In this document: piece after piece, positions 2,984 through 58,600 of the stretch
Layout: every line of letters starts with the position of its first letter
Position numbering within the stretch: position 1 is the first letter of the stretch
Assembly (NCBI RefSeq): GCF_048403405.1
Contig: NZ_CP183129.1
Direction: 5' to 3' (one strand)
Source of the DNA: Escherichia coli
GTDB lineage: Bacteria; Pseudomonadota; Gammaproteobacteria; Enterobacterales; Enterobacteriaceae
Length of the DNA stretch: 64,000 nucleotides
Notes under the pieces: model-generated
Databases searched by the model: none
Seen by the model: the letters and a program-made list of their open reading frames with translations, nothing else
What the model was told of the DNA's origin: nothing
Program-made: the position numbers and the translations under genes

Positions 2984-3021
2984 AACGTTTTTCCGGCGTT
3001 TCTCAACGCCGGAATAGCGTA

Positions 3022-4275
3022 TTAATGGCTTTCAGCCCAGGCTCTTTCTATCTCTTCCGCCAGAATCTTCACTCCCGCCTCAATTTTCTCCGGCTCCGGC
3101 ACGTAGTTCATGCGCATACATTGATGTGTATGTGGCCACGGTTTATCCAGCCCTGGGAAGAAGTTGTGCCCCGGCACCATCAGCACGCCCCGTGCTTTCA
3201 GGCGCTGGTAGAGCTGCTCGGTCGTAATTGGCAAATCCTTAAACCATAGCCAGAGGAAAATGGCTCCTTCCGGTTTATGAATCAGGCAGCGATCTTCCGG
3301 TAAATAGCGGCGAATGATAGCGATAGTTTCCTGAACACGCTGGTAGTAAAACGGTTTGATGACTGTTTCAGACAGGCGCAGCAGATCGTTACGCTTAATC
3401 ATTTCACACATCATCGCCGGACCAATACCGCCAGGTGCCAGGCTGATAATGCCGTTCATATTGGTGATGGCGGTGATGATTTTTTCATTGGCGATGATAA
3501 TGCCGCAGCGGGAGCCAGGTAGCCCCAGCTTAGAAAGACTCATGCACAGTACGATATTCGGATTCCACAGCGGGCGCGCTTCGCTGAAGATGATACCCGG
3601 GAACGGGACGCCATAAGCGTTATCAATCACTAGCGGAATGCCGTGTTGATTCGCCAGCGCGTCAAGCTTCAGCAACTCTTCGTCAGTAATCACATTGCCT
3701 GTTGGATTCGTCGGCCGGGAGACGCAAATCATCCCGGTTTCTTCGCCAATATGCAGATGCTCAAAATCGACGTGGTATTTAAACTGGCCTTCCGGCAGCA
3801 GTTCAATATTCGGACGCGCAGAGACAAACAGATCTTCTTCCAGTCCGGCGTCAGCGTAGCCAATGTATTCCGGTGCCAGCGGGAACAGCACTTTTTTGAC
3901 CCGACCATCGGCACGGCGTCCGGCAAACAGATTAAATAAGTAGAAAAACGCGCTCTGGCTGCCGTTTGTTAGTGCAATATTCTGTGGTTCGATATCCCAA
4001 CCCAACTTCTCGCGCAGCATTCCGGCAAGCAGTGTGAGTAGCTCCGTTTTCCCCTGTGGACCGTCGTAATTGCACAGTGCATCAGTCGCTTTGCCACTTT
4101 CCAGCATGTCGGTCAGTAGCGTCTGGAAGTAGTCCTGCATTTCCGGGATCTGCGCTGGATTACCGCCGCCGAGCATAATCGCGCCAGGCGTGCGTAAACC
4201 GTCGTTCAGATCTTCCATCAGCAGCGTAATGCCGGAGTGGCGGGTAAATTTGTCACCAAAAAGGGAGAATGTCAT
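3022..4275 (-). CDS. avtA: valine-pyruvate aminotransferase (417 aa)
   Basis: ORF extends to 4380, but the internal ATG at 4273-4275 (MTFSLFGDKF) gives the recognised 417-aa AvtA; class I aminotransferase motifs. Confidence 0.88.
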   Translation of the reverse strand: MTFSLFGDKFTRHSGITLLMEDLNDGLRTPGAIMLGGGNPAQIPEMQDYFQTLLTDMLESGKATDALCNYDGPQGKTELLTLLAGMLREKLGWDIEPQNIALTNGSQSAFFYLFNLFAGRRADGRVKKVLFPLAPEYIGYADAGLEEDLFVSARPNIELLPEGQFKYHVDFEHLHIGEETGMICVSRPTNPTGNVITDEELLKLDALANQHGIPLVIDNAYGVPFPGIIFSEARPLWNPNIVLCMSLSKLGLPGSRCGIIIANEKIITAITNMNGIISLAPGGIGPAMMCEMIKRNDLLRLSETVIKPFYYQRVQETIAIIRRYLPEDRCLIHKPEGAIFLWLWFKDLPITTEQLYQRLKARGVLMVPGHNFFPGLDKPWPHTHQCMRMNYVPEPEKIEAGVKILAEEIERAWAESH

Positions 4276-29883: not shown

Positions 29884-30292
29884 TCCAGGTGGGTAGTTGG
29901 GTTTCATCCTGCCATGCGCAGTCGACAATGTGAAAACCCTGCGCATGGTAAAAATCTATCGCCGGTTGATTTTTTTGATAAACCTCCAGCATCAGATGGG
30001 GATGGCGCTGCTGCACATACTGCATTAGCGCCTTACCAATACCGCGTCTGACGGCCTTCGGTGCGACAAACATTGCAGCCAGAAATCGGCCTTCCATAAT
30101 GCTGACAAAACCGAGAAGCTTACCGTCTTCTTCCCAGACCCAGTTTTGCGCGTTGGCAAGATAGGCATCCCGCACCAGCGGAATGCAATCACGCCAGTAA
30201 TTCGCTTTTATAAAGGGATGCCCCCAGGTTGTACTTTCCAGCCACAGTTCGAGGATCGCGGGGAGTTCTGAACGTTGCGCTTCCCGAATCAT
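29852..30292 (-). CDS. yiaC: GNAT-family N-acetyltransferase (146 aa)
   Basis: 146-aa ORF; 3' end overlaps the bisC 3' end by 32 bp; overlaps tag stop by 4 bp. Confidence 0.82.
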
Positions 30293-30852
30293 GGTTTATT
30301 TCCCGGATAGCAACAGCAGCCAACCACATGATCATTCACCAGCCCACATGCCTGCATAAAGGAGTAACAGATTGTGGTACCAACAAACTTAAAACCACGC
30401 TTTTTCAAGGCTTTAGATAGAGCGTCGGAGGCGGGCGTAGATGTAGGGATTTCGCTCAACGTTGTGGCTTGTGTCACCTGTGGTTGATGATTGACAAACG
30501 ACCAGACAAAGTCGGCAAACGGTTCGCCGTTCTGTTCCATTTGCAGGTACGCCCGCGCATTACCAATAATTGCCTGAATTTTCCCGCGATGGCGGATAAT
30601 CCCGGCGTCCTGTACCAGTCTTTCGACATCCTCTTCCTGCATTGCAGCCACCTTCACCGGATCGAACTGATGAAAGCTGGCGCGATAGTTTTCGCGTTTT
30701 TTGAGGACGGTGATCCACGATAATCCAGCCTGCTGCCCTTCAAGGCAGATCATTTCGAACAGTTTTTTACTGTCAGTTTCAGGCACGCCCCATTCATTAT
30801 CATGGTAGGCAATATAAAGCGGGTCCTGACTCACCCAGCCGCAACGTTCCAT
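30289..30852 (-). CDS. tag: 3-methyladenine DNA glycosylase I (187 aa)
   Basis: Start at MERCGWVSQDPLYIAYHDNEWG inside a longer ORF; zinc-binding Cys at the C-terminus. Confidence 0.9.
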   Translation of the reverse strand: MERCGWVSQDPLYIAYHDNEWGVPETDSKKLFEMICLEGQQAGLSWITVLKKRENYRASFHQFDPVKVAAMQEEDVERLVQDAGIIRHRGKIQAIIGNARAYLQMEQNGEPFADFVWSFVNHQPQVTQATTLSEIPTSTPASDALSKALKKRGFKFVGTTICYSFMQACGLVNDHVVGCCCYPGNKP

Positions 30853-31009
30853 ACTTTCCCTCGCTATGTACCCGATCGTAAAAATTTCAGCCGCTTTTCT
30901 TGACGCATCGGTGAAAAAGTCAATATTTAATACAGGGCTACTATGCCCGATATCCTTCATACAATGACAATAATATTGCCGAATTCGGCTCTTCCCTGGA
31001 GTCGTGTTA

Positions 31010-31708
31010 ATGATCATAAAAAAAAGCGGTGGTCGCTGGCAGCTAAGCCTGCTGGCGAGTGTGGTAATCAGTGCCTTTTTTCTCAACACAGCTTACGCCT
31101 GGCAACAAGAATATATCGTTGATACGCAACCCGGACATTCCACAGAGCGTTACACCTGGGATAGCGATCATCAACCTGATTACAACGATATTTTGTCGCA
31201 ACGTATTCAAAGTAGCCAAAGGGCGCTGGGACTGGAAGTCAATCTGGCGGAAGAAACCCCTGTGGATGTGACCAGCAGTATGAGTATGGGCTGGAATTTT
31301 CCTTTATATGAACAGGTTACAACCGGCCCGGTCGCGGCATTACATTACGATGGCACAACCACCTCGATGTATAACGAGTTTGGCGACAGTACTACCACGC
31401 TAGCCGATCCGTTATGGCATGCCAGCGTGAGTACCTTAGGCTGGCGTGTTGACTCCCGGCTTGGCGATCTCCGACCCTGGGCGCAAATCAGCTATAACCA
31501 GCAATTTGGCGAGAATATCTGGAAGGCGCAATCAGGCCTGAGCCGGATGACGGCGACAAACCAGAACGGCAACTGGCTGGATGTCACCGTAGGCGCTGAT
31601 ATGTTGCTCAATCAAAATATTGCTGCCTATGCTGCGCTATCTCAGGCAGAAAATACCACTAACAATAGCGACTATCTGTATACGATGGGGGTTAGCGCCA
31701 GATTTTAA
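31010..31708 (+). CDS. yhjY: YhjY, autotransporter beta-domain-like outer membrane protein (232 aa)
   Basis: Signal peptide followed by an aromatic-rich beta region ending in F; start chosen as MIIKKSGG. Confidence 0.7.
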   Translation: MIIKKSGGRWQLSLLASVVISAFFLNTAYAWQQEYIVDTQPGHSTERYTWDSDHQPDYNDILSQRIQSSQRALGLEVNLAEETPVDVTSSMSMGWNFPLYEQVTTGPVAALHYDGTTTSMYNEFGDSTTTLADPLWHASVSTLGWRVDSRLGDLRPWAQISYNQQFGENIWKAQSGLSRMTATNQNGNWLDVTVGADMLLNQNIAAYAALSQAENTTNNSDYLYTMGVSARF

Positions 31709-31936
31709 CGTTATAGATACAATTGAAACCATTGGATAACAACAGTTGTGGCGATAGTGGGTGCTAACTTACTAAATAATAAATTTGGTGAATAATTGTC
31801 GAGTCATTCATTCCTGAACTAATGCATTTCATTCCGTTCTGATGGCATTTCATGCCGTTTTTCCCCAGGCATAAAGTGCACTTCGTTATGGTTGTCAGCA
31901 GAGATTTTTCCTTTTTATTACTGCAGGAATACTGCC

Positions 31937-33145
31937 ATGACACCTTCAAATTATCAGCGTACCCGCTGGTTGACACTCATCGGTACTATCATTACCCAGT
32001 TTGCGCTGGGGTCGGTTTATACCTGGAGCCTGTTTAACGGCGCGCTTTCTGCCAAGCTGGATGCGCCGGTAAGCCAGGTCGCTTTCTCTTTCGGCTTGTT
32101 AAGTCTGGGGCTGGCAATTTCATCTTCTGTTGCGGGGAAATTACAGGAACGTTTTGGCGTTAAACGCGTCACTATGGCTTCCGGCATTTTGCTGGGATTA
32201 GGCTTCTTCCTGACAGCGCATTCTGACAACCTGATGATGCTGTGGTTAAGCGCCGGTGTGCTGGTCGGTCTGGCGGATGGCGCGGGTTACCTGCTGACGC
32301 TCTCTAACTGCGTGAAGTGGTTCCCGGAGCGTAAAGGTCTGATCTCCGCGTTCGCTATCGGTTCTTATGGTCTGGGTAGCCTGGGTTTCAAATTTATCGA
32401 CACGCAGCTGCTCGAAACGGTGGGTCTGGAAAAAACTTTTGTGATTTGGGGAGCGATTGCGCTGGTGATGATTGTTTTCGGCGCAACGTTAATGAAAGAC
32501 GCACCAAAACAGGAAGTGAAAACCAGCAATGGTGTGGTGGAGAAAGATTACACGCTGGCAGAGTCAATGCGTAAACCGCAGTACTGGATGTTAGCGGTAA
32601 TGTTCCTGACTGCCTGCATGAGCGGCCTGTACGTGATTGGGGTAGCGAAAGATATCGCCCAAAGTCTGGCACACCTTGATGTGGTTTCCGCAGCCAATGC
32701 AGTCACTGTTATTTCCATCGCCAACCTTTCAGGTCGTCTGGTTCTGGGGATACTGTCTGACAAAATCGCCCGAATCCGTGTTATCACCATTGGTCAGGTG
32801 ATTTCGCTGGTGGGTATGGCGGCCCTGCTGTTTGCACCATTGAATGCAGTGACGTTCTTTGCAGCGATTGCCTGCGTGGCGTTTAACTTTGGCGGCACCA
32901 TTACCGTTTTCCCGTCACTGGTCAGTGAGTTCTTCGGCCTCAATAACCTGGCGAAAAACTACGGTGTGATTTATCTCGGTTTCGGTATCGGCAGCATTTG
33001 TGGGTCGATTATCGCCTCACTGTTTGGCGGCTTCTATGTGACGTTCTATGTCATCTTTGCTCTGCTGATTCTGTCATTGGCGCTATCTACGACGATTCGC
33101 CAGCCAGAGCAGAAAGTATTGCGTGAGGCGCATGGCTCCCTTTAA
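31937..33145 (+). CDS. yhjX: MFS transporter (402 aa)
   Basis: 12-TM MFS architecture; start at MTPSNYQRTRW. Confidence 0.85.
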   Translation: MTPSNYQRTRWLTLIGTIITQFALGSVYTWSLFNGALSAKLDAPVSQVAFSFGLLSLGLAISSSVAGKLQERFGVKRVTMASGILLGLGFFLTAHSDNLMMLWLSAGVLVGLADGAGYLLTLSNCVKWFPERKGLISAFAIGSYGLGSLGFKFIDTQLLETVGLEKTFVIWGAIALVMIVFGATLMKDAPKQEVKTSNGVVEKDYTLAESMRKPQYWMLAVMFLTACMSGLYVIGVAKDIAQSLAHLDVVSAANAVTVISIANLSGRLVLGILSDKIARIRVITIGQVISLVGMAALLFAPLNAVTFFAAIACVAFNFGGTITVFPSLVSEFFGLNNLAKNYGVIYLGFGIGSICGSIIASLFGGFYVTFYVIFALLILSLALSTTIRQPEQKVLREAHGSL

Positions 33146-33229
33146 TCATCTGCCGCAAGCTACTGGGCTTTAGCCTTAGTGTGAATCAAACGCTTCAACG
33201 CAATATATAAACAATGACGCGTAAAATTT

Positions 33230-33252
33230 GGGCCAGTTAACTGGCCCTTTTT
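33230..33252 (+). terminator. rho-independent terminator of yhjX
   Basis: gggccag ttaa ctggccc followed by TTTTT. Confidence 0.7.
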
Positions 33253-33468
33253 ACTGCTTTTTGTAACGCTAAAGTCTCTTTTCAAACTTGCATTTTTGTA
33301 AATTTGTGCTTCATGCACATTCTTTCCCCACACTTTTTCCCTTTGCTGTGGTCTACTTATTCGCGCGTGTAGATTTTACTTATCTGACTACCTCCGCACT
33401 TTTCCCCTGCCGGGCCCGAAAAGCCGTTAAGCAGGGTGTTATCACCTGTTTGCCCAGGGTTTGTTTGC

Positions 33469-35160
33469 ATGAGATACATCAAATCGATTACACAGCAGAA
33501 GCTGAGCTTTTTGCTTGCAATCTATATTGGCCTTTTTATGAATGGCGCGGTTTTTTACCGCCGCTTCGGCAGCTATGCGCACGATTTTACCGTCTGGAAA
33601 GGCATTTCTGCTGTTGTTGAACTGGCCGCCACCGTACTGGTGACCTTCTTTTTACTACGTCTTCTTTCGCTGTTTGGCCGCCGTAGCTGGCGTATTCTGG
33701 CGTCGCTGGTGGTGCTCTTTTCCGCAGGTGCCAGCTATTACATGACCTTCCTTAATGTGGTCATTGGTTATGGCATCATCGCTTCCGTCATGACCACCGA
33801 TATCGACCTGTCAAAAGAAGTTGTTGGTCTGAACTTTATTCTCTGGTTAATCGCCGTTAGCGCATTGCCTCTTATCCTTATCTGGAATAACCGCTGTCGC
33901 TACACCTTGCTCCGACAACTGCGAACCCCAGGGCAGCGTATTCGCAGCCTGGCGGTCGTCGTACTGGCGGGTATTATGGTTTGGGCACCGATTCGTTTGC
34001 TGGATATCCAGCAGAAGAAAGTGGAGAGGGCGACCGGTGTTGATTTGCCCAGCTATGGCGGCGTCGTAGCGAACTCTTATCTGCCATCAAACTGGCTTTC
34101 GGCATTGGGGCTGTATGCCTGGGCGCGGGTCGATGAATCTTCCGATAATAATTCATTGCTTAACCCGGCGAAGAAATTCACTTATCAGGCACCGCAAAAC
34201 GTTGATGACACTTATGTCGTGTTTATCATCGGTGAAACCACGCGTTGGGACCATATGGGCATTTTCGGCTATGAGCGTAATACCACGCCGAAGCTGGCCC
34301 AGGAGAAAAATCTGGCGGCGTTCCGTGGCTATTCTTGTGACACGGCGACCAAACTTTCTCTGCGTTGCATGTTTGTACGAGAGGGTGGGGCGGAAGATAA
34401 TCCGCAGCGCACATTAAAAGAACAGAACATTTTCGCGGTATTGAAGCAGTTAGGATTCAGTTCTGATCTCTACGCTATGCAAAGCGAAATGTGGTTCTAC
34501 AGCAACACGATGGCAGACAACATTGCTTATCGTGAGCAGATTGGTGCGGAGCCACGTAACCGTGGCAAGCCGGTAGATGATATGTTGCTGGTAGACGAAA
34601 TGCAGCAATCGCTGGGGCGCAACCCGGATGGTAAGCATCTGATCATTCTGCATACCAAAGGTTCGCACTTTAACTACACCCAGCGTTACCCGCGCAGCTT
34701 TGCGCAGTGGAAGCCGGAATGTATTGGTGTTGATAGCGGCTGTACCAAAGCGCAGATGATCAACTCCTATGACAACTCGGTGACCTATGTGGATCACTTT
34801 ATCTCCAGCGTGATTGATCAGGTTCGCGATAAGAAAGCGATTGTGTTCTACGCAGCTGACCACGGTGAGTCAATTAATGAACGCGAGCACCTGCACGGCA
34901 CGCCGCGTGAACTGGCACCGCCGGAGCAGTTCCGTGTGCCGATGATGGTCTGGATGTCAGATAAATATCTGGAAAATCCGGTCAATGCGCAAGCATTTGC
35001 GCAGCTGAAAAAAGAAGCCGACATGAAAGTGCCACGCCGTCACGTAGAGCTGTACGACACCATCATGGGTTGTCTTGGCTATACTTCACCGGATGGTGGA
35101 ATTAACGAAAACAACAACTGGTGCCACATCCCGCAGGCAAGAGAGGCGGCGGCTAACTAA
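33469..35160 (+). CDS. eptB: Kdo2-lipid A phosphoethanolamine transferase (563 aa)
   Basis: N-terminal TM domain plus sulfatase-like periplasmic domain; start at [10 protein letters not shown]. Confidence 0.88.
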
Positions 35161-35210
35161 GCGGCCTGCTGACTTTCTCGCCGATCAAAAGGCATTTTGC
35201 TATTAAGGGA

Positions 35211-35239
35211 TTGACGAGGGCGTATCTGCGCAGTAAGAT
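35211..35239 (+). promoter_or_regulatory. proK promoter
   Basis: -35 TTGACG (35211-35216), 17-bp spacer, -10 TAAGAT (35234-35239), then GC-rich discriminator gcgccccgc. Confidence 0.6.
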
Positions 35240-35251
35240 GCGCCCCGCATT

Positions 35252-35328
<77 letters not shown>

Positions 35329-35664
35329 AATTCGAAATGCCTGCTCAGCGAGCAGGCTTTTTTGCATTTGTAGCTCATGAGGATGAGAACCTCCGGGGGC
35401 GGGGAGGTTCGACTCGAGCGAAGCGAGAGAACGTTGCGCCAGCAACGGCCCGCAGGGCGAGCCACGAAGTGGCGAGTAATCCTCTATCACCGACCAAATT
35501 CGAAAAGCCTGCTCAGCGAGCAGGCTTTTTTGCATCTGCAGCCCATGAGGATGAGAACCTCCGGGGGCAGGGAGGTTCGACTCGAGCGAAGCGAGAGAAC
35601 GTTGCGCCAGCAACGGCCCGCAGGGCGAGCCACGAAGTGGCGAGTAATCCTCTGGCACCGACCA
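35329..35664 (+). repeat. two tandem 168-bp direct repeats after proK, each with a terminator-like hairpin and a copy of the tRNA-Pro 3' end
   Basis: Unit 1 35329-35496, unit 2 35497-35664, about 95% identical; each has gcctgctcagcgagcaggcTTTTTT and ends in aatcctct(a/g)(t/g)caccgacca. Confidence 0.85.
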
Positions 35665-36260
35665 AATTCGGCACCGCACTCATTGTGGGATACAGCGTAT
35701 CCGTCTTATCCGATCTAAACGGCAACACACCACACATTTCCCTGCCAAATTTGCGCCCCATATCTCACTATCCATTAATGGATTTGTGACAGAAACCATT
35801 GTCTTTTTTTATATTTGCTTAAATCTTTTTTTGCGTTACTTATGACTGGCGCTGGCATTTTCCGCTGTGCGTTTTAGCGTTCATGGTATTAATCGCTCAG
35901 ATATCCACCTTTTCCTCAGATTTTTTTCACTAAATGCATAAAACTTAATCACCAAATGTTGCTAAATATTAAGCTGATTGTTCTGGTCATGTTGGAGTAG
36001 CACAAATTTCTCTGCTGCAAATAGCGGTTTGAAGTTTTTTTAATCTTTGTTTGTGGATTCTCACCGTTGGTGTAAATCCCGGTTGGCTGTATTGACGTTT
36101 TCACATTCTGTTGACAGATTGTAGGTCACGAGGGGCATTTTATGGAGGATCCGCACTGTTACACTGATGTTAATTAGTACGGCATCCCCACCTCATAACG
36201 TTGACCCGACCGGGCAAAAAACAAAAAAGGTCAGGCGGCGACAACCCACTGCAAAGGGTT

Positions 36261-36279
36261 AAAACAACAAACATCACAA
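36261..36279 (+). promoter_or_regulatory. C/A-rich element in the dppA leader, candidate GcvB sRNA target
   Basis: aaaacaacaaacatcacaa immediately upstream of the GGAG Shine-Dalgarno; GcvB is known to pair with C/A-rich leaders including dppA. Confidence 0.45.
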
Positions 36280-36292
36280 TTGGAGCAGAATA

Positions 36293-37900
36293 ATGCGTAT
36301 TTCCTTGAAAAAGTCAGGGATGCTGAAGCTTGGTCTCAGCCTGGTGGCTATGACCGTCGCAGCAAGTGTTCAGGCTAAAACTCTGGTTTATTGCTCAGAA
36401 GGATCTCCGGAAGGGTTTAACCCGCAGTTGTTTACCTCCGGTACTACCTATGACGCCTCTTCCGTGCCGCTTTATAACCGCCTGGTTGAATTTAAAATCG
36501 GCACCACCGAAGTGATCCCGGGCCTCGCTGAAAAGTGGGAAGTCAGCGAAGACGGTAAAACCTATACCTTCCATCTGCGTAAAGGTGTGAAGTGGCACGA
36601 CAATAAAGAATTCAAACCGACGCGCGAACTGAACGCCGATGACGTGGTGTTCTCGTTCGATCGTCAGAAAAACGCGCAAAACCCGTACCATAAAGTTTCT
36701 GGCGGTAGCTACGAATACTTTGAAGGCATGGGCTTGCCGGAGCTGATCAGCGAAGTGAAAAAGGTGGACGACAACACCGTTCAGTTTGTGCTGACTCGAC
36801 CGGAAGCGCCGTTCCTCGCTGACCTGGCAATGGACTTCGCCTCTATTCTGTCAAAAGAATATGCTGACGCGATGATGAAAGCCGGTACACCGGAAAAACT
36901 GGACCTCAACCCAATCGGCACCGGTCCGTTCCAGTTACAGCAGTACCAAAAAGATTCCCGTATCCGCTACAAAGCGTTTGATGGCTACTGGGGCACCAAA
37001 CCGCAGATCGATACGCTGGTTTTCTCTATTACCCCTGATGCTTCCGTGCGTTACGCGAAATTGCAGAAGAATGAATGCCAGGTGATGCCGTACCCGAACC
37101 CGGCAGACATCGCTCGCATGAAGCAGGATAAATCCATCAACCTGATGGAAATGCCGGGGCTGAACGTCGGCTATCTTTCATATAACGTGCAGAAAAAACC
37201 ACTCGATGATGTGAAAGTTCGCCAGGCTCTGACCTACGCGGTGAACAAAGACGCGATCATCAAAGCGGTTTATCAGGGCGCGGGCGTGGCAGCGAAAAAC
37301 CTGATCCCGCCAACCATGTGGGGCTATAACGACGACGTTCAGGACTACACCTACGATCCCGAAAAAGCGAAAGCCTTGCTGAAAGAAGCGGGCCTGGAAA
37401 AAGGCTTCTCCATCGACCTGTGGGCAATGCCGGTACAACGTCCGTATAACCCGAACGCTCGCCGCATGGCGGAGATGATTCAGGCAGACTGGGCGAAAGT
37501 CGGCGTGCAGGCCAAAATTGTCACCTACGAATGGGGTGAGTACCTCAAGCGTGCGAAAGATGGCGAGCACCAGACGGTAATGATGGGCTGGACTGGCGAT
37601 AATGGGGATCCGGATAACTTCTTCGCCACCCTGTTCAGCTGCGCCGCCTCTGAACAAGGCTCCAACTACTCAAAATGGTGCTACAAACCGTTTGAAGATC
37701 TGATTCAACCGGCGCGTGCTACCGACGACCATAACAAACGCGTTGAACTGTACAAGCAAGCGCAGGTGGTGATGCACGATCAGGCTCCGGCACTGATCAT
37801 CGCTCACTCCACCGTGTTTGAACCGGTACGCAAAGAAGTTAAAGGCTATGTGGTTGATCCATTAGGCAAACATCACTTCGAAAACGTCTCTATCGAATAA
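36293..37900 (+). CDS. dppA: dipeptide ABC transporter periplasmic binding protein (535 aa)
   Basis: 535-aa ORF with signal peptide; recognised DppA; followed by dppBCDF. Confidence 0.95.
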   Translation: MRISLKKSGMLKLGLSLVAMTVAASVQAKTLVYCSEGSPEGFNPQLFTSGTTYDASSVPLYNRLVEFKIGTTEVIPGLAEKWEVSEDGKTYTFHLRKGVKWHDNKEFKPTRELNADDVVFSFDRQKNAQNPYHKVSGGSYEYFEGMGLPELISEVKKVDDNTVQFVLTRPEAPFLADLAMDFASILSKEYADAMMKAGTPEKLDLNPIGTGPFQLQQYQKDSRIRYKAFDGYWGTKPQIDTLVFSITPDASVRYAKLQKNECQVMPYPNPADIARMKQDKSINLMEMPGLNVGYLSYNVQKKPLDDVKVRQALTYAVNKDAIIKAVYQGAGVAAKNLIPPTMWGYNDDVQDYTYDPEKAKALLKEAGLEKGFSIDLWAMPVQRPYNPNARRMAEMIQADWAKVGVQAKIVTYEWGEYLKRAKDGEHQTVMMGWTGDNGDPDNFFATLFSCAASEQGSNYSKWCYKPFEDLIQPARATDDHNKRVELYKQAQVVMHDQAPALIIAHSTVFEPVRKEVKGYVVDPLGKHHFENVSIE

Positions 37901-38050
37901 TTAAAAGCCATACCCGGTGGCGCTGTGCCTCTGCGTGCAGCGCCATCCGGCAGCAATACTTCATTCCCTGCCCGACCTGGGCGGGAATTGATTTGTGAGC
38001 AATACAGACACGCAGTTCCAGGCTGCGGGTCACTACAGAGAATCCGGGTT

Positions 38051-39070
38051 ATGTTGCAGTTTATTCTCCGACGTTTGGGACTCGTCATCCCCACGTTTAT
38101 CGGTATTACCCTTCTCACATTTGCCTTTGTCCACATGATCCCGGGCGATCCGGTGATGATCATGGCGGGCGAACGTGGGATCTCCCCAGAGCGTCACGCG
38201 CAGCTGCTGGCTGAACTCGGCTTAGATAAACCTATGTGGCAGCAGTATCTCCATTACATTTGGGGCGTAATGCACGGCGATTTAGGCATTTCGATGAAAA
38301 GCCGCATCCCGGTATGGGAAGAGTTCGTGCCGCGCTTTCAGGCCACGCTGGAACTTGGCGTCTGCGCGATGATTTTTGCTACGGCAGTCGGTATTCCGGT
38401 TGGTGTGCTGGCTGCGGTTAAACGCGGTTCCATTTTCGATCACACGGCGGTTGGCCTGGCGCTGACAGGTTATTCAATGCCTATCTTCTGGTGGGGCATG
38501 ATGCTGATCATGCTGGTTTCGGTGCACTGGAACCTGACGCCCGTCTCCGGTCGCGTGAGCGACATGGTGTTCCTCGATGATTCCAATCCGTTAACCGGTT
38601 TTATGCTGATCGACACCGCCATCTGGGGTGAAGACGGTAACTTTATCGATGCCGTCGCCCATATGATCTTGCCCGCCATTGTGCTGGGTACTATCCCGCT
38701 GGCGGTCATTGTGCGTATGACACGCTCCTCGATGCTGGAAGTGCTAGGTGAAGATTATATCCGCACCGCGCGCGCCAAAGGGCTGACCCGCATGCGGGTG
38801 ATTATCGTCCATGCGCTGCGTAACGCGATGCTGCCGGTAGTGACCGTTATCGGCCTCCAGGTGGGAACATTGCTGGCGGGGGCGATTCTGACCGAAACCA
38901 TCTTCTCGTGGCCCGGTCTGGGGCGCTGGTTGATTGACGCACTGCAACGCCGCGACTATCCGGTAGTGCAGGGCGGCGTATTGCTGGTGGCGACGATGAT
39001 TATCCTCGTCAACTTGCTGGTCGATCTGCTGTACGGCGTGGTGAACCCGCGTATTCGTCATAAGAAGTAA
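38051..39070 (+). CDS. dppB: dipeptide ABC transporter permease (339 aa)
   Basis: Start at MLQFILRRLGLVIP; ABC permease fold. Confidence 0.9.
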   Translation: MLQFILRRLGLVIPTFIGITLLTFAFVHMIPGDPVMIMAGERGISPERHAQLLAELGLDKPMWQQYLHYIWGVMHGDLGISMKSRIPVWEEFVPRFQATLELGVCAMIFATAVGIPVGVLAAVKRGSIFDHTAVGLALTGYSMPIFWWGMMLIMLVSVHWNLTPVSGRVSDMVFLDDSNPLTGFMLIDTAIWGEDGNFIDAVAHMILPAIVLGTIPLAVIVRMTRSSMLEVLGEDYIRTARAKGLTRMRVIIVHALRNAMLPVVTVIGLQVGTLLAGAILTETIFSWPGLGRWLIDALQRRDYPVVQGGVLLVATMIILVNLLVDLLYGVVNPRIRHKK

Positions 39071-39079
39071 GGGGACATC

Positions 39080-39982
39080 ATGTCACAGGTTACTGAAAAT
39101 AAAGTGATTAGCGCACCGGTGCCGATGACCCCGTTACAGGAGTTCTGGCACTATTTTAAACGCAACAAAGGCGCGGTCGTCGGGCTGGTTTACGTCGTCA
39201 TCGTGCTGTTTATCGCGATCTTTGCCAACTGGATTGCACCCTATAACCCGGCGGAACAGTTCCGCGATGCACTGCTCGCCCCGCCAGCCTGGCAGGAAGG
39301 CGGCAGCATGGCGCACTTGCTGGGCACCGATGACGTAGGCCGTGATGTGCTGTCGCGTCTGATGTACGGTGCGCGATTGTCACTGCTGGTTGGCTGTCTG
39401 GTAGTTGTGTTATCGCTGATTATGGGCGTTATTCTCGGCCTGATCGCCGGTTACTTCGGCGGCCTGGTCGATAACATCATCATGCGCGTGGTCGATATCA
39501 TGCTGGCGCTACCAAGTCTGCTGTTGGCACTGGTGCTGGTGGCGATTTTCGGCCCGTCGATTGGTAACGCCGCGCTGGCGCTGACCTTCGTTGCCTTGCC
39601 GCACTATGTGCGCTTAACACGCGCCGCCGTGCTGGTGGAGGTGAATCGCGATTACGTTACCGCGTCTCGCGTGGCAGGTGCCGGGGCGATGCGTCAGATG
39701 TTTATTAACATCTTCCCGAACTGCCTTGCGCCTCTGATTGTTCAGGCGTCGCTCGGTTTCTCTAACGCCATTCTCGATATGGCTGCTCTTGGTTTCCTCG
39801 GCATGGGGGCGCAGCCGCCAACGCCGGAGTGGGGCACCATGCTCTCCGACGTGTTGCAGTTCGCGCAAAGCGCCTGGTGGGTCGTGACCTTCCCGGGTCT
39901 GGCGATCCTGCTGACGGTGCTGGCATTTAACCTGATGGGTGACGGTCTGCGTGACGCGCTCGATCCCAAACTGAAGCAGTAA
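39080..39982 (+). CDS. dppC: dipeptide ABC transporter permease (300 aa)
   Basis: 300-aa ABC permease ORF. Confidence 0.9.
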
Positions 39983-39992
39983 GAGGTTCGAG

Positions 39993-40972
<980 letters not shown>

Positions 40973-40976
<4 letters not shown>

Positions 40977-41977
40977 GTACGCATGAGGCCACCTCGCAAC
41001 AACCGCTGTTGCAGGCTATCGACCTGAAAAAACATTATCCGGTGAAGAAAGGTATGTTCGCTCCGGAACGTCTGGTGAAGGCGCTGGATGGCGTTTCGTT
41101 TAACCTTGAACGTGGCAAAACGCTGGCGGTAGTAGGTGAATCCGGCTGCGGTAAATCTACCCTCGGTCGGTTGCTTACGATGATCGAAACGCCCACCGGC
41201 GGTGAGCTGTATTACCAGGGGCAGGATCTGCTCAAGCACGATCCGCAGGCGCAGAAGCTGCGTCGGCAGAAAATCCAGATCGTCTTCCAGAATCCCTATG
41301 GTTCGCTAAATCCGCGTAAAAAAGTTGGGCAAATTCTTGAAGAGCCGCTGCTTATTAATACCAGCTTAAGCAAAGAACAGCGTCGGGAAAAAGCCCTGTC
41401 GATGATGGCGAAAGTCGGCCTGAAAACCGAGCATTACGACCGCTATCCGCATATGTTCTCCGGCGGTCAGCGTCAGCGTATCGCCATTGCCCGTGGTCTG
41501 ATGCTCGACCCGGATGTGGTGATTGCCGATGAACCGGTTTCCGCGCTGGACGTTTCAGTGCGTGCGCAGGTGCTGAATCTGATGATGGATTTGCAGCAGG
41601 AGTTGGGGCTGTCTTATGTCTTTATCTCGCACGACCTGTCAGTGGTTGAGCACATTGCCGATGAAGTGATGGTGATGTACCTGGGCCGCTGCGTGGAGAA
41701 GGGAACGAAGGACCAAATCTTCAATAACCCGCGTCATCCGTACACTCAGGCGCTACTCTCCGCGACGCCGCGCCTGAACCCGGACGATCGCCGCGAGCGC
41801 ATCAAGCTCACCGGTGAACTGCCAAGCCCGCTCAATCCACCGCCGGGCTGCGCGTTTAACGCCCGCTGTCGTCGGCGCTTCGGCCCCTGCACCCAGTTGC
41901 AGCCGCAGCTAAAAGACTACGGCGGTCAACTGGTAGCTTGTTTTGCTGTTGATCAGGATGAAAATCCGCAGCGTTAA
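40973..41977 (+). CDS. dppF: dipeptide ABC transporter ATP-binding protein (334 aa)
   Basis: Walker [10 protein letters not shown], signature FSGGQRQR; 4-bp overlap with dppD. Confidence 0.9.
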
Positions 41978-41983
41978 CTCACA

Positions 41984-42008
41984 AAACCGGGGCCGTGCGC
42001 TCCGGTTT
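41984..42008. terminator. bidirectional terminator hairpin between dppF and yhjV
   Basis: aaaccgg / ccggttt stem; overlaps the yhjV stop codon. Confidence 0.45.
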
Positions 42009-43278
42009 ACTCAATCAGCTTCAACAGTGGCGACAAGCATAGCAAAATGCCGTAAAGCAGAATCAGCCAGGCTTTAAATCCGCGAAGTTTTTCCAGTTGT
42101 GCGACTTTATAGATCAGGAAAAACGGAATGAGGCACGACACAATGCCATATAACGGGCTTCCCAACTGAAAGAACACCAGCACCGATACACGAAACGAAA
42201 CCCAAATCGTCAACGTAATGACGATAAAAGCGCAGATCGCCAGAGTCAGCACGCGTGAATTAATTTTCTTGGTATCAATAATTCGGCTTAACAGATTGAG
42301 AATAATGCCTTTAATGGCCTCGTGGAAACCGAGATAAATGCCAAAGAATGCGGTCAGTACGGCAAAGATATTCAGCACCGTAGAGGTGATATGAATGATA
42401 TGCCCAGGGATCACCTGCGCGGCCAGTGCCAGTGCCGAGATATTTTGTTCAAAGGCAGAAACGGCTTCTTCGTGGCTAATTGAGAAGGTAAACGAAAAGG
42501 CAAAAAACAGGATCACCGCAATGAGCGTGATATAACTAATTCGGTGGGTACGCAGCGCGAGCCGGGTTGCCAGTACTTTATCTGCTTCCCGTTTACGATA
42601 GGCAATATTCATTGGGTTAAGTACCTGAATAAATACTGCAGAAAAGAAGCAAAATGGAATGGTAAGCAGGACATCGCGGAAAAAGACGGAGGCTTGCGGG
42701 AAGGCGGTTATATTGGCGAAATTCCAGTGCGGGATCATCGCAAAACCGAACACGACAATAATCCCTACTTTGACCACCACCATTGGCCCGGAAATCTTAA
42801 ACAGTAATCGTTCACCACCAGACGCAATTGCCACCAGTACGGCGAAAATGGCGACTTTATAAAGTAGAGATTGTGAAAGATCGGCATCGGTTAAACCGAA
42901 GGTTTTCAGGTACGAGGCGCTGTCGAAAACCACGGAGAGAGAGTAGATAAAAATCCCGTGGATAATCATCAAAAAGTAGATAACCCCGAGGAAAATTCCC
43001 CAGTTCTTCCCCAGGTAATGACTGATAATATCGGTGTAGTCATTACAGGAATCGCTTTCAGAAAGGGTTTTTAAATAAATGTCCTGCACTACCCAGGTGG
43101 CAGGATAAGCAATGATCGCTGCGGTAATAAATACCCAAATTCCCTTCAAGCCAATTTGTACTGGCATCAGCACGGTTCCGGCACCAATCGCCATGCCTAT
43201 GCATAATAAAACCCAGCCGAAGTCGTAGCGTGTAAACGGCAATTTCTGATCGTGTTTCGGTAGTGTGTTGTGCTGCAT
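42007..43278 (-). CDS. yhjV: amino acid (serine/threonine-type) permease family transporter (423 aa)
   Basis: Start at [10 protein letters not shown] inside a longer ORF; 11-12 TM segments. Confidence 0.85.
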
Positions 43279-43753
43279 AAAGTCCTGTCCAGAAAGAAGT
43301 CGGCCTCGCAAAAATGAATAAACCCAGTTTCTCTTGCGCAACAGGTGGAGAAGTCGAATACGCAGTATGTAAAAAATGAGGCAACAGATTCACTGGGGAG
43401 GTCGCGAGTAGGCGCAATTCTACAAAATTGCGCATTTCACTACCAGTCTGGAGTCAGCCCGGATATGAACTGCAACTATTGCAAATAAAGAAATTAAGCT
43501 GGAAGGCATCGCGCAATGAGGAAGATTGCCGGGTGCTGACGGTAAAAAGCAATCGTAGAATCAGCGGCAAGCCGGAAAGGTTCCGGTGAGGCGCAATGTT
43601 GCGGGGGCTTTATCCCTGGTGGCATTGGTTGCTGGAGAGAGAAAACCCCCGCACGTTGCAGGTATGCACCTGACAACATCACGGGGGCCATTCTTGAACC
43701 TACACAACTCAAGAATAGCCGCGAAACGTTGTCATTACAACAGAGGCGGCTAT

Positions 43754-43861
43754 ATGACGCTCGCAGAGCTGGGCATGGCCTTCTGGCACGATTTAGCGGC
43801 TCCGGTCATTGCTGGCATTCTTGCCAGCATGATCGTGAACTGGCTGAACAAGCAGAAGTAA
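43754..43861 (+). CDS. Ldr-family type I toxin peptide, copy 1 (35 aa, ...NWLNKQK)
   Basis: MTLAELGMAFWHDLAAPVIAGILASMIVNWLNKQK; ATG at 43754. Confidence 0.8.
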   Translation: MTLAELGMAFWHDLAAPVIAGILASMIVNWLNKQK

Positions 43862-44236
43862 CGTGTCAGACGGGCGTCAGGCTGCCGTAATGGCAATTTG
43901 CGCCCGGATCAGGCCGCAGGGATAAAACTCTGCGGCCTTTTTCGTAAGAAAAATGCAACGGTTGCAAGCGGATAATATTCTGCGGAATGCGCAGCACAGA
44001 GTGAAGAAGTGACGGATTCCGGAACAGAAAAACAGTCGTAGAATCAGCGGCAAGCCGGAAGGGTTCCGGTGAGGCGCAATGTTGCGGGGGCTTAATCCCT
44101 GGTGGCATTGGTTGCTGGAGAGAGAAAACCCCCGCACGTTGCAGGTATGCACCTGACAACACCACGGGGGCCATTCTTGCATCCAAACAATACAAGAATA
44201 GCCGCGAAACGTTGTCATTACAACAGAGGCGGCTAT

Positions 44237-44344
44237 ATGACGCTCGCAGAGCTGGGCATGGCCTTCTGGCATGATTTAGCGGCTCCGGTCATTGCTGGCA
44301 TTCTTGCCAGCATGATCGTGAACTGGCTGAATAAGCGGAAGTAA
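44237..44344 (+). CDS. Ldr-family type I toxin peptide, copy 2 (35 aa, ...NWLNKRK)
   Basis: MTLAELGMAFWHDLAAPVIAGILASMIVNWLNKRK; 483 bp after copy 1. Confidence 0.8.
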   Translation: MTLAELGMAFWHDLAAPVIAGILASMIVNWLNKRK

Positions 44345-44719
44345 CGTGTCAGACGGGCGTCAGGCTGCCGTAATGGCAATTTGCGCCCGGACCAGGCCGC
44401 AGGGATAAAACTCTGCGGCCTTTTTCGTAAGAAAAATGCAACGGTTGCAAGCGGATAATATTCTGCGGAATGCGCAGCACAGAGTGAAGAAGTGATGGAT
44501 TCCGGAACAGAAAAACAGTCGTAGAATCAGCGGCAAGCCGGAAAGGTTCCGGTGAGGCGCAATGTTGCGGGGGCTTAATCCCTGGTGGCATTGGTTGCTG
44601 GAGAGAGAAAACCCCCGCACGTTGCAGGTATGCACCTGACAACACCACGGGGGCCATTCTTGCATCTAGACCATTCAAGAATAGCCGCGAAACGTTGTCA
44701 TTACAACAGAGGCGGCTAT

Positions 44720-44827
44720 ATGACGCTCGCAGAGCTGGGCATGGCCTTCTGGCATGATTTAGCGGCTCCGGTCATTGCTGGCATTCTTGCCAGCATGATC
44801 GTGAACTGGCTGAACAAGCGGAAGTAA
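44720..44827 (+). CDS. Ldr-family type I toxin peptide, copy 3 (35 aa, ...NWLNKRK)
   Basis: Identical peptide to copy 2; 483 bp after copy 2. Confidence 0.8.
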   Translation: MTLAELGMAFWHDLAAPVIAGILASMIVNWLNKRK

Positions 44828-44913
44828 CGTGTCATGCGGGCGTCAGGCTGCCGTAATGGCAATTTGCGCCCGGACCAGGCCGCAGGGGTGAAACTCTGCG
44901 GCCTTTTTCGTTC

Positions 44914-55650: not shown

Positions 55651-58600
55651 ACATATTCACGCTTTCTCTCGGTCTGGCCGTCATGCCGATGGTCGAGGCA
55701 GCACCAACCGCTCAGCAACAGTTGCTGGAGCAAGTTCGGTTAGGCGAAGCGACCCATCGTGAAGACCTGGTGCAACAGTCGTTGTATCGTCTGGAACTTA
55801 TTGATCCGAATAACCCGGACGTCGTTGCCGCCCGTTTCCGTTCTCTGTTACGTCAGGGCGATATTGATGGCGCGCAAAAACAGCTCGATCGGCTGTCGCA
55901 GTTAGCGCCGAGTTCAAATGCGTATAAATCGTCGCGGACTACGATGCTGCTTTCCACGCCGGATGGTCGTCAGGCACTGCAACAGGCAAGATTGCAGGCG
56001 ACGACTGGTCATGCAGAAGAAGCTGTGGCGAGTTACAACAAACTGTTCAACGGTGCGCCGCCGGAAGGTGACATTGCCGTCGAGTACTGGAGTACGGTGG
56101 CGAAAATTCCGGCTCGCCGTGGCGAAGCGATTAATCAGCTAAAACGCATTAATGCGGATACGCCGGGCAATACGGGCCTACAAAACAATCTGGCGCTATT
56201 GCTGTTTAGTAGCGATCGCCGTGACGAAGGTTTTGCCGTCCTGGAACAGATGGCGAAATCAAACGCCGGGCGCGAAGGGGCCTCTAAAATCTGGTACGGG
56301 CAGATTAAAGACATGCCCGTCAGCGATGCCAGTGTGTCGGCGCTGAAAAAATATCTCTCGATCTTTAGTGATGGCGATAGCGTAGCTGCGGCGCAATCGC
56401 AACTGGCAGAACAGCAAAAACAGCTGGCCGACCCTGCTTTCCGCGCTCGTGCGCAAGGTTTAGCGGCGGTGGACTCTGGTATGGCGGGTAAAGCCATTCC
56501 CGAACTACAACAGGCAGTGCGGGCGAACCCGAAAGACAGTGAGGCTCTGGGGGCGCTGGGCCAGGCGTATTCTCAGAAAGGCGATCGCGCCAATGCGGTG
56601 GCGAATCTGGAAAAAGCCCTCGCCCTGGATCCGCACAGCAGCAACAACGACAAATGGAACAGTCTCCTGAAAGTAAACCGCTACTGGCTGGCGATCCAGC
56701 AGGGCGATGCTGCGCTGAAAGCCAATAATCCTGACCGGGCAGAACGCCTGTTCCAGCAGGCGCGTAATGTCGATAACACCGACAGCTATGCAGTGCTGGG
56801 GCTGGGCGATGTGGCGATGGCGCGAAAAGATTATCCCGCCGCCGAACGTTATTATCAGCAGACCTTGCGTATGGACAGCGGCAACACTAACGCCGTGCGC
56901 GGGCTGGCAAATATTTACCGCCAGCAATCACCAGAAAAAGCTGAAGCGTTTATCGCCTCGCTCTCTGCCAGTCAGCGGCGTAGCATTGATGATATCGAAC
57001 GCAGCCTACAAAACGACCGTCTGGCACAGCAGGCAGAGGCACTGGAAAACCAGGGCAAATGGGCGCAGGCGGCAGCACTTCAGCGGCAACGACTGGCGCT
57101 GGATCCCGGCAGCGTATGGATTACTTACCGACTTTCGCAGGATCTCTGGCAGGCCGGACAACGCAGCCAGGCTGATACATTAATGCGCAATCTGGCACAG
57201 CAGAAGCCAAACGACCCGGAGCAGGTTTACGCTTACGGGCTGTATCTCTCTGGTCATGACCAGGACAGAGCGGCGCTGGCGCATATCAACAGCCTGCCGC
57301 GCGCGCAGTGGAGCAGCAATATTCAGGAGCTGGTTAATCGACTGCAAAGCGATCAGGTACTGGAAACCGCTAATCGCCTGCGAGAAAGCGGCAAAGAAGC
57401 TGAAGCGGAAGCGATGCTGCGCCAGCAACCACCTTCCACGCGCATAGACCTCACGCTGGCTGACTGGGCGCAACAACGACGTGATTACACCGCCGCTCGC
57501 GCTGCATATAAGAATGTCCTGACGCGGGAGCCAACTAACGCCGATGCCATTCTTGGTCTGACGGAAGTGGATATTGCTGCCGGTGACAAAGCTGCGGCAC
57601 GTAGCCAGCTGGCGAAACTGCCCGCTACCGATAACGCCTCGCTGAACACACAGCGGCGCGTGGCGCTGGCGCAGGCGCAGCTTGGAGATACCGCAGCGGC
57701 GCAGCAGACGTTTAATAAGTTGATCCCGCAGGCAAAATCTCAGCCGCCGTCGATGGAAAGTGCGATGGTGCTGCGCGACGGTGCGAAGTTTGAAGCGCAG
57801 GCGGGCGATCCAACGCAGGCGCTGGAAACCTACAAAGACGCCATGGTTGCATCCGGTGTGACCACGATGCGTCCACAGGATAACGACACCTTTACCCGAC
57901 TGACCCGCAATGACGAGAAAGATGACTGGCTGAAACGCGGCGTGCGCAGCGATGCGGCGGACCTCTATCGTCAGCAGGATCTTAATGTCACCCTCGAGCA
58001 CGATTACTGGGGTTCGAGCGGCACCGGTGGTTACTCCGATCTGAAAGCGCACACCACTATGTTGCAGGTGGATGCGCCGTATTCTGACGGGCGGATGTTC
58101 TTTCGTAGTGATTTCGTCAATATGAACGTCGGCAGTTTTTCCACTAATGCCGATGGCAAATGGGATGACAACTGGGGCACCTGTACATTACAAGACTGTA
58201 GCGGCAACCGCAGCCAGTCGGATTCCGGTGCCAGCGTGGCGGTCGGCTGGCGAAATGACGTCTGGAGCTGGGATATCGGCACCACGCCGATGGGCTTCAA
58301 TGTGGTGGATGTGGTCGGCGGCATCAGTTACAGCGATGATATCGGGCCGCTGGGTTACACCGTTAACGCCCATCGTCGGCCCATCTCCAGTTCTTTGCTG
58401 GCCTTTGGCGGGCAAAAAGACTCCCCGAGCAATACCGGGAAAAAATGGGGCGGCGTGCGTGCCGACGGCGTGGGGCTAAGCCTGAGCTACGATAAAGGTG
58501 AAGCAAACGGCGTCTGGGCATCGCTTAGCGGTGATCAGTTAACCGGTAAAAATGTCGAAGATAACTGGCGCGTGCGCTGGATGACGGGCTATTACTATAA

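Follow-up and report, generated by a model that had tools for sequence, protein, structure and literature searches.

The window, the whole 64-kb stretch of Escherichia coli DNA that was analysed, carries dppA, followed on the same strand by dppB, dppC, dppD and dppF (Table 1). The dppA open reading frame scores 1178 bits against the NCBIfam DppA equivalog (cut-off 1005), and the reading frame starting at 36293 is also annotated as dppA in RefSeq E. coli genomes. The stretch from tRNA-Pro (proK) through two tandem RtT repeats (35252-35664) lies just upstream of the dppA promoter region, and three tandem ldr/rdl type I toxin-antitoxin repeats occupy 43544-44911. An Rfam scan of positions 30000-44000 matched tRNA-Pro, two RtT copies, rdlD and, below threshold, one sok sequence, and no cis-regulatory family was matched in the dppA leader. 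The porcine isolate K_EC180, a different strain, is approximately 99 % identical to the window overall and has an identical dppA leader. Relative to K_EC180 the window is without the IS1397 insertion (3017-3022) and keeps a 10.3-kb bcs (cellulose synthesis) segment at 45756-56049, which K_EC180 has lost by deletion between bcsG and bcsC; the bcsG/bcsC truncation annotated in K_EC180 was rejected for the window, in which the bcs segment is retained. The spacer between dppA and dppB (37901-38050) is strongly structured (minimum free energy z = -3.6) and contains two G+C-rich hairpins, one at about 37917-37947 and a terminator-like one at about 37967-37985; judged from the predicted folds, these may set the expression ratio of dppA to dppBCDF or stabilise the dppA message.

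Table 1 Features in and around the dppA leader
Feature	Position in window	Strand	Remarks
RtT repeats	35363-35496; 35529-35664		Rfam RF00391, 101 and 99 bits
Probable dppA promoter	36093-36121	+	TTGACG-17-CAGATT; block nearly invariant across genera
C/A-rich tract	36261-36279	+	AAAACAACAAACATCACAA; dppA 5' leader; 18 of 19 letters C or A
Predicted GcvB pairing interval	36263-36282 (-30 to -11)	+	RNAduplex with accessibility; GcvB nt 62-82
Shine-Dalgarno sequence GGAG	36282-36285	+	Within GGAGCAGAA
dppA coding sequence, periplasmic dipeptide-binding protein	36293-37900	+	NCBIfam NF043070 DppA equivalog, full length
dppB, dppC, dppD, dppF	38051-41977	+	NCBIfam equivalogs and annotation
rdlD	43640-43705		Rfam RF01813
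Ldr toxin open reading frames	43754, 44237, 44720		

The candidate -10 element of the probable dppA promoter is weak (3 of 6 matches), and a simple promoter scan did not call this site, its only call being at 35786-35815. A transcript from this promoter would presumably have a leader of about 165 nt that includes the C/A-rich tract. The segment 36093-36140, which comprises the promoter block and the first approximately 20 transcribed bases, is almost invariant in the Enterobacteriaceae (identity of 0.84 over -200 to -166) and probably represents the dppA promoter together with a 5' stem that is conserved. An 11-codon upstream reading frame (MEDPHCYTDVN, 36143-36178, preceded by GAGGGG) was rejected as a gene, its ATG being lost in many genera and its length variable.

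Direct reading of the sequence bears out the coordinates given in the first-pass annotation, which had noted a C/A-rich track before the GGAG at 36282. The sole letter of AAAACAACAAACATCACAA other than C or A is the T at 36274, and uninterrupted C/A extends over 13 nt at most. The tract is followed by TT, the GGAG, a 7-nt spacer (AGCAGAATA...) and the dppA ATG at 36293, and it contains four ACA motifs within 15 nt (36264-36278), starting at 36264, 36267, 36271 and 36276. In the leader fold, positions 36261-36285 are predicted to be single-stranded, with a mean unpaired probability of 0.81. In the 64-kb window, 19-nt segments of which 18 or more letters are C or A form four clusters over the two strands, against a binomial expectation of about 1.75 such segments per strand, and runs of at least 12 nt consisting of C and A only number 11 on the + strand. 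By composition the tract is thus not unusual, such C/A richness occurring at chance frequency in the window; the label C/A-rich holds as 18 of 19 letters and fails if it is taken to mean purely C/A or a composition beyond chance. What does exceed chance is a combination of features, namely the position directly 5' of the Shine-Dalgarno sequence, a 20-bp complementarity to the R1 region of the small RNA GcvB, and conservation both within E. coli and across species.

The leader from -175 to +6 differs from that of E. coli K-12 MG1655 at one position, a G in place of A at -56 (36237), outside the tract, and the tract, Shine-Dalgarno sequence and start codon equal those of K-12 letter for letter. 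Of 5426 complete E. coli genomes, 5422 contain the segment 35700-36400, and several porcine isolates match it at 100 % identity; an exact copy of the 65 nt around the tract is carried by 5406 of the 5422 genomes. On the partner side, GcvB nt 49-109 (R1) are exact in 5411 of 5425 E. coli genomes, and the GcvB of K_EC180 is 100 % identical to that of K-12, which served as the query sequence. For the enterobacterial comparison 80 dppA loci were reduced to 75 distinct leaders, and the alignment comprised 68 leaders. Across the 75 leaders the segment from -32 to -14 has a C/A fraction of 0.85 and two to seven ACA motifs. Identity is at least 0.9 in the CATCACA core and falls to 0.42 in the segment from -50 to -33. 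CATCACA, the best-conserved part of the tract, pairs with GcvB GGUUGUGAUG, itself conserved throughout the family, and GGAGCAGAA, which holds the Shine-Dalgarno sequence, is nearly invariant in the columns of the 68-leader alignment. In three Buttiauxella leaders the tract is shortened to AACATCACAAC, the exact complement of GcvB nt 64-74.

The in silico pairing with GcvB R1 that had been proposed as a check in the first-pass annotation was found. Positions 36270-36282 are predicted to form 13 base pairs with GcvB nt 74-62, two of them U.G and one a G-C pair in which the first G of the Shine-Dalgarno sequence takes part, and, beyond a bulged G75 of GcvB, positions 36263-36269 form 7 base pairs with nt 82-76, so that the predicted duplex spans all four ACA motifs. 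The longest exact Watson-Crick complement is AACAUCACAA, 10 nt that match GcvB nt 65-74. The hybridisation energy is -24.6 kcal/mol, opening costs are 1.3 kcal/mol for the target and 7.7 kcal/mol for GcvB, and the total is -15.6 kcal/mol. The 7.7 kcal/mol arises from the partial structure that ViennaRNA assigns to R1, which contradicts the Rfam RF00022 consensus structure, in which R1 is an unpaired linker between stem-loops, and weakens the computed total; since the consensus leaves the stretch unpaired, this cost is probably overestimated. Rescue by compensatory mutations between the dppA tract and GcvB R1 is reported in the literature.

A consensus target seed for GcvB R1 is 5'-CACAACAU-3' (PMC5900567). 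This canonical 8-mer is absent from the dppA tract, which pairs in a register shifted to the 5' side of R1, toward GcvB nt 62-74. The CACAACAU consensus is a tendency among GcvB targets and not a requirement; dppA is a verified target without it. The R1 targets oppA, gltI, argT, livJ and livK resemble dppA in that their 5' leaders contain a single-stranded C/A-rich element with which the G/U-rich R1 pairs, and dppA differs from them in being without CACAACAU and in using the 5' half of R1 (nt 62-82) for pairing.

Raw hybridisation energy is a weak discriminator for the dppA site. Against dinucleotide-shuffled targets the raw duplex energy has a z of -2.3, with 41 of 2000 shuffles as good and a shuffled average of -15 kcal/mol against R1; among the 70-nt tiles of the 64-kb window about 4 % reach a raw duplex score as good as that of dppA, and with accessibility left aside dppA ranks third of 50 start sites. 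This high background arises because all four bases, A, C, G and U, can find partners in the G/U-rich R1. The weighted score was obtained by minimising hybridisation and both opening energies jointly, replacing an earlier procedure in which opening costs were added after the longest duplex had been chosen and hairpins were unfairly forced open. With this score dppA ranks first of 58 start sites (-15.6 kcal/mol; the second-ranked site, a mechanical TTG start, has -12.4 kcal/mol). The start-site background consisted of the K_EC180 annotation (approximately 99 % identical), in which seven genes lie past the right end of the window, together with the window's own bcs reading frames with mechanical start codons. 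The window has five sites with an exact 10-nt complement of R1, against an expectation of 2.7, and only that of dppA lies at a translation start. The case may serve for calibration, as a verified sRNA site that is indistinguishable by composition or raw duplex energy and stands out only when accessibility, position and conservation are taken in. Among the best-scoring start sites after dppA is that of yhjV (43259-43278, - strand; total of -11.5 kcal/mol), a member of an amino-acid transporter family (TIGR00814), for whose first 20 nt, AUGCAGCACAACACACUACC, pairing with GcvB nt 72-92 is predicted; the Miyakoshi 2022 regulon paper (PMC9299463) does not name yhjV in its main text.

The analysis itself established the sequence, the gene identity, the identity with K-12, the predicted duplex with its accessibility and the conservation of the two partners, and in vivo repression, Hfq dependence and enhancer function, for the identical or a nearly identical sequence, as well as interactome data, were taken from the literature. 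In the latter, dppA is an R1 target listed as 'Verified' in E. coli and Salmonella, with support from RIL-seq, CLASH and MAPS, and is called a major GcvB target with RIL-seq chimeras in the thousands (PMC9299463, Miyakoshi et al.); a TRIC-seq study (bioRxiv 10.1101/2025.09.11.675593) likewise maps GcvB contacts on dppA. Deletion of gcvB in E. coli leads to constitutive DppA synthesis, and the accepted mechanism is antisense pairing that stops translation initiation (PMC3658540). The statement in the first-pass annotation that C/A-rich elements are GcvB sites on mRNAs including dppA is therefore well founded at this locus, given the K-12-identical tract, the 'Verified' status of the target and the predicted duplex, although it gave the GcvB role only and left out that of an ACA enhancer. 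For the latter, work in Salmonella located four ACA motifs within 15 nt beside the Shine-Dalgarno sequence of dppA, deletion of this 15-nt segment lowered dppA-lacZ activity by 96 %, and randomising the ACAs left 0.5-5 % of the activity (PMC3879156, Yang et al. 2014). In the same study GcvB variants changed at nt 84-88 still repressed dppA, which fits pairing confined to nt 62-83. The present tract resembles the GcvB-silenced ACA enhancers described there for yifK and dppA, with four ACAs in 15 nt by the Shine-Dalgarno sequence and all within the GcvB duplex, the difference being that those experiments were done in Salmonella and the present sequence is from E. coli.

The tract is accordingly read as the GcvB (R1) target site of the dppA mRNA combined with a cis-acting translation enhancer, with a probability of about 95 %. 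It has the clustered ACAs near the Shine-Dalgarno sequence in an unstructured context that mark an ACA enhancer, and also the accessible leader site within the ribosome footprint that marks a GcvB R1 target (-30 to -11, reaching the first G of the Shine-Dalgarno sequence). Very improbable, in comparison, is a purely enhancing role, in which the tract would be an unstructured 'landing' sequence for the ribosome, its ACAs possibly read by S1, and its GcvB complementarity incidental to C/A richness. Irrespective of GcvB, dppA indeed requires the ACA motifs for its expression (PMC3879156), the promiscuity of the G/U-rich R1 towards C/A-rich sequence is evident in the shuffled average given above, and the conservation of the tract across genera is mostly one of composition and not of exact sequence. 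This reading is nevertheless contradicted by the verified direct R1 interaction and the in vivo chimeras (PMC9299463), by the fact that the best-conserved element, CATCACA, is the very part that pairs with GcvB GGUUGUGAUG, and by the Buttiauxella tract, which is reduced to an exact GcvB complement; the two roles are moreover compatible, the published model being that GcvB silences the enhancer.

A use of the site mainly by some other G/U-rich sRNA, such as a 3'-UTR sRNA like the DapZ of Salmonella, whose seed resembles that of GcvB and which acts on dppA and oppA, has hardly any likelihood. DapZ is a functionally analogous regulator of amino-acid-related mRNAs (PMC4474525), but the 3' end of dapB in E. 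coli K-12 shares complements of at most 6 nt with the tract, its best duplex (-18.9 kcal/mol) is not centred on the tract, and GcvB-dppA chimeras are abundant in E. coli (PMC9299463). A DapZ-like regulator in E. coli was rejected for want of meaningful complementarity at the dapB 3' end. That the tract is a functionless low-complexity run produced by chance, as the near-chance frequency of equally C/A-rich tracts in the window might suggest, is just as implausible, since the tract hardly varies among 5422 E. coli genomes, 75 leaders keep its composition and position while the segment from -50 to -33 diverges, and experimental deletion of the tract abolishes dppA expression (PMC3879156).

Two predicted structures lie upstream of the tract in the leader. 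A stem of GUUGACCCGACC and GGUCAGGCGGCGAC around the A-rich loop GGGCAAAAAACAAAAAA (36199-36241) contains G36237, at which a U-A pair becomes U.G, and a small hairpin, AACCC-ACUGCAAA-GGGUU (36243-36260), lies directly 5' of the tract. The larger stem is 86 % paired in the 68 distinct enterobacterial leaders, versus 14-51 % when the partners are slid, with weak covariation; RNAalifold on 68 leaders, in an alignment too gappy to be informative, gave no consensus pairs. The small hairpin recurs with changed stem letters (GCC/GGC, CCCC/GGGG, CCCG/CGGG) in Escherichia, Salmonella, Citrobacter, Kluyvera and Kosakonia-type leaders and is missing from Klebsiella, Raoultella and most Enterobacter leaders. 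On this structural modelling the A-rich loop might offer Hfq an (ARN)n platform in the action of GcvB. A wider proposal, that the dppA leader is a modular riboregulatory unit of the GcvB/ACA tract, a stem-loop at 36199-36241 offering (ARN)n to the distal face of Hfq, and an insulating lineage-specific hairpin at 36243-36260 that would keep the tract single-stranded, is speculative and rather doubtful. To our knowledge, descriptions of how GcvB controls dppA have so far included neither of these upstream elements.

In the combined reading of the tract as GcvB site and enhancer, the single-stranded ACA-rich sequence 5' of the Shine-Dalgarno sequence would, when free, promote 30S initiation on dppA. 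Under glycine- or nutrient-rich conditions GcvA would activate GcvB, whose G/U-rich single-stranded R1 would base-pair, aided by Hfq, with the leader from -30 to -11; the duplex would mask the four ACA motifs and the edge of the Shine-Dalgarno sequence inside the ribosome footprint, and with initiation blocked DppA synthesis would be lowered. The first-pass annotation considered post-transcriptional control of dppABCDF to be probably intact. This stands for the dppA site. Neither gcvB nor hfq was located within the 64-kb window, so intactness as such rests on their near-universal conservation in E. coli, from which the source strain is inferred to carry both. In the accessibility-weighted scan the start sites of dppB, dppC, dppD and dppF showed no GcvB site of their own, scoring no better than about -5 kcal/mol and outside the top ten; with the site on dppA only, any effect on dppBCDF would be indirect, these genes presumably following dppA under GcvB.

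The GcvB docking site before dppA is already known and well characterised, and it is intact and ordinary here. It shares gene, tract, Shine-Dalgarno-adjacent position and R1 partner with GcvB-dppA of K-12 and Salmonella Typhimurium (Urbanowski 2000; Sharma 2007; Pulvermacher 2008; Miyakoshi 2022); it differs from K-12 in nothing of substance, the G at -56 being the only leader change, and from the Salmonella enterica leaders compared by one base in the tract (A in E. coli and T in Salmonella at the equivalent of 36270), with an equal ACA count. The Dpp system sets sensitivity to toxic dipeptides, for example Ala-Gln, in peptidase-deficient strains (PMC9299463). The finding has little significance beyond annotation: the strain keeps a textbook sRNA control point of dipeptide uptake, at which GcvB restricts the synthesis of DppA under an ample supply of amino acids and peptides.
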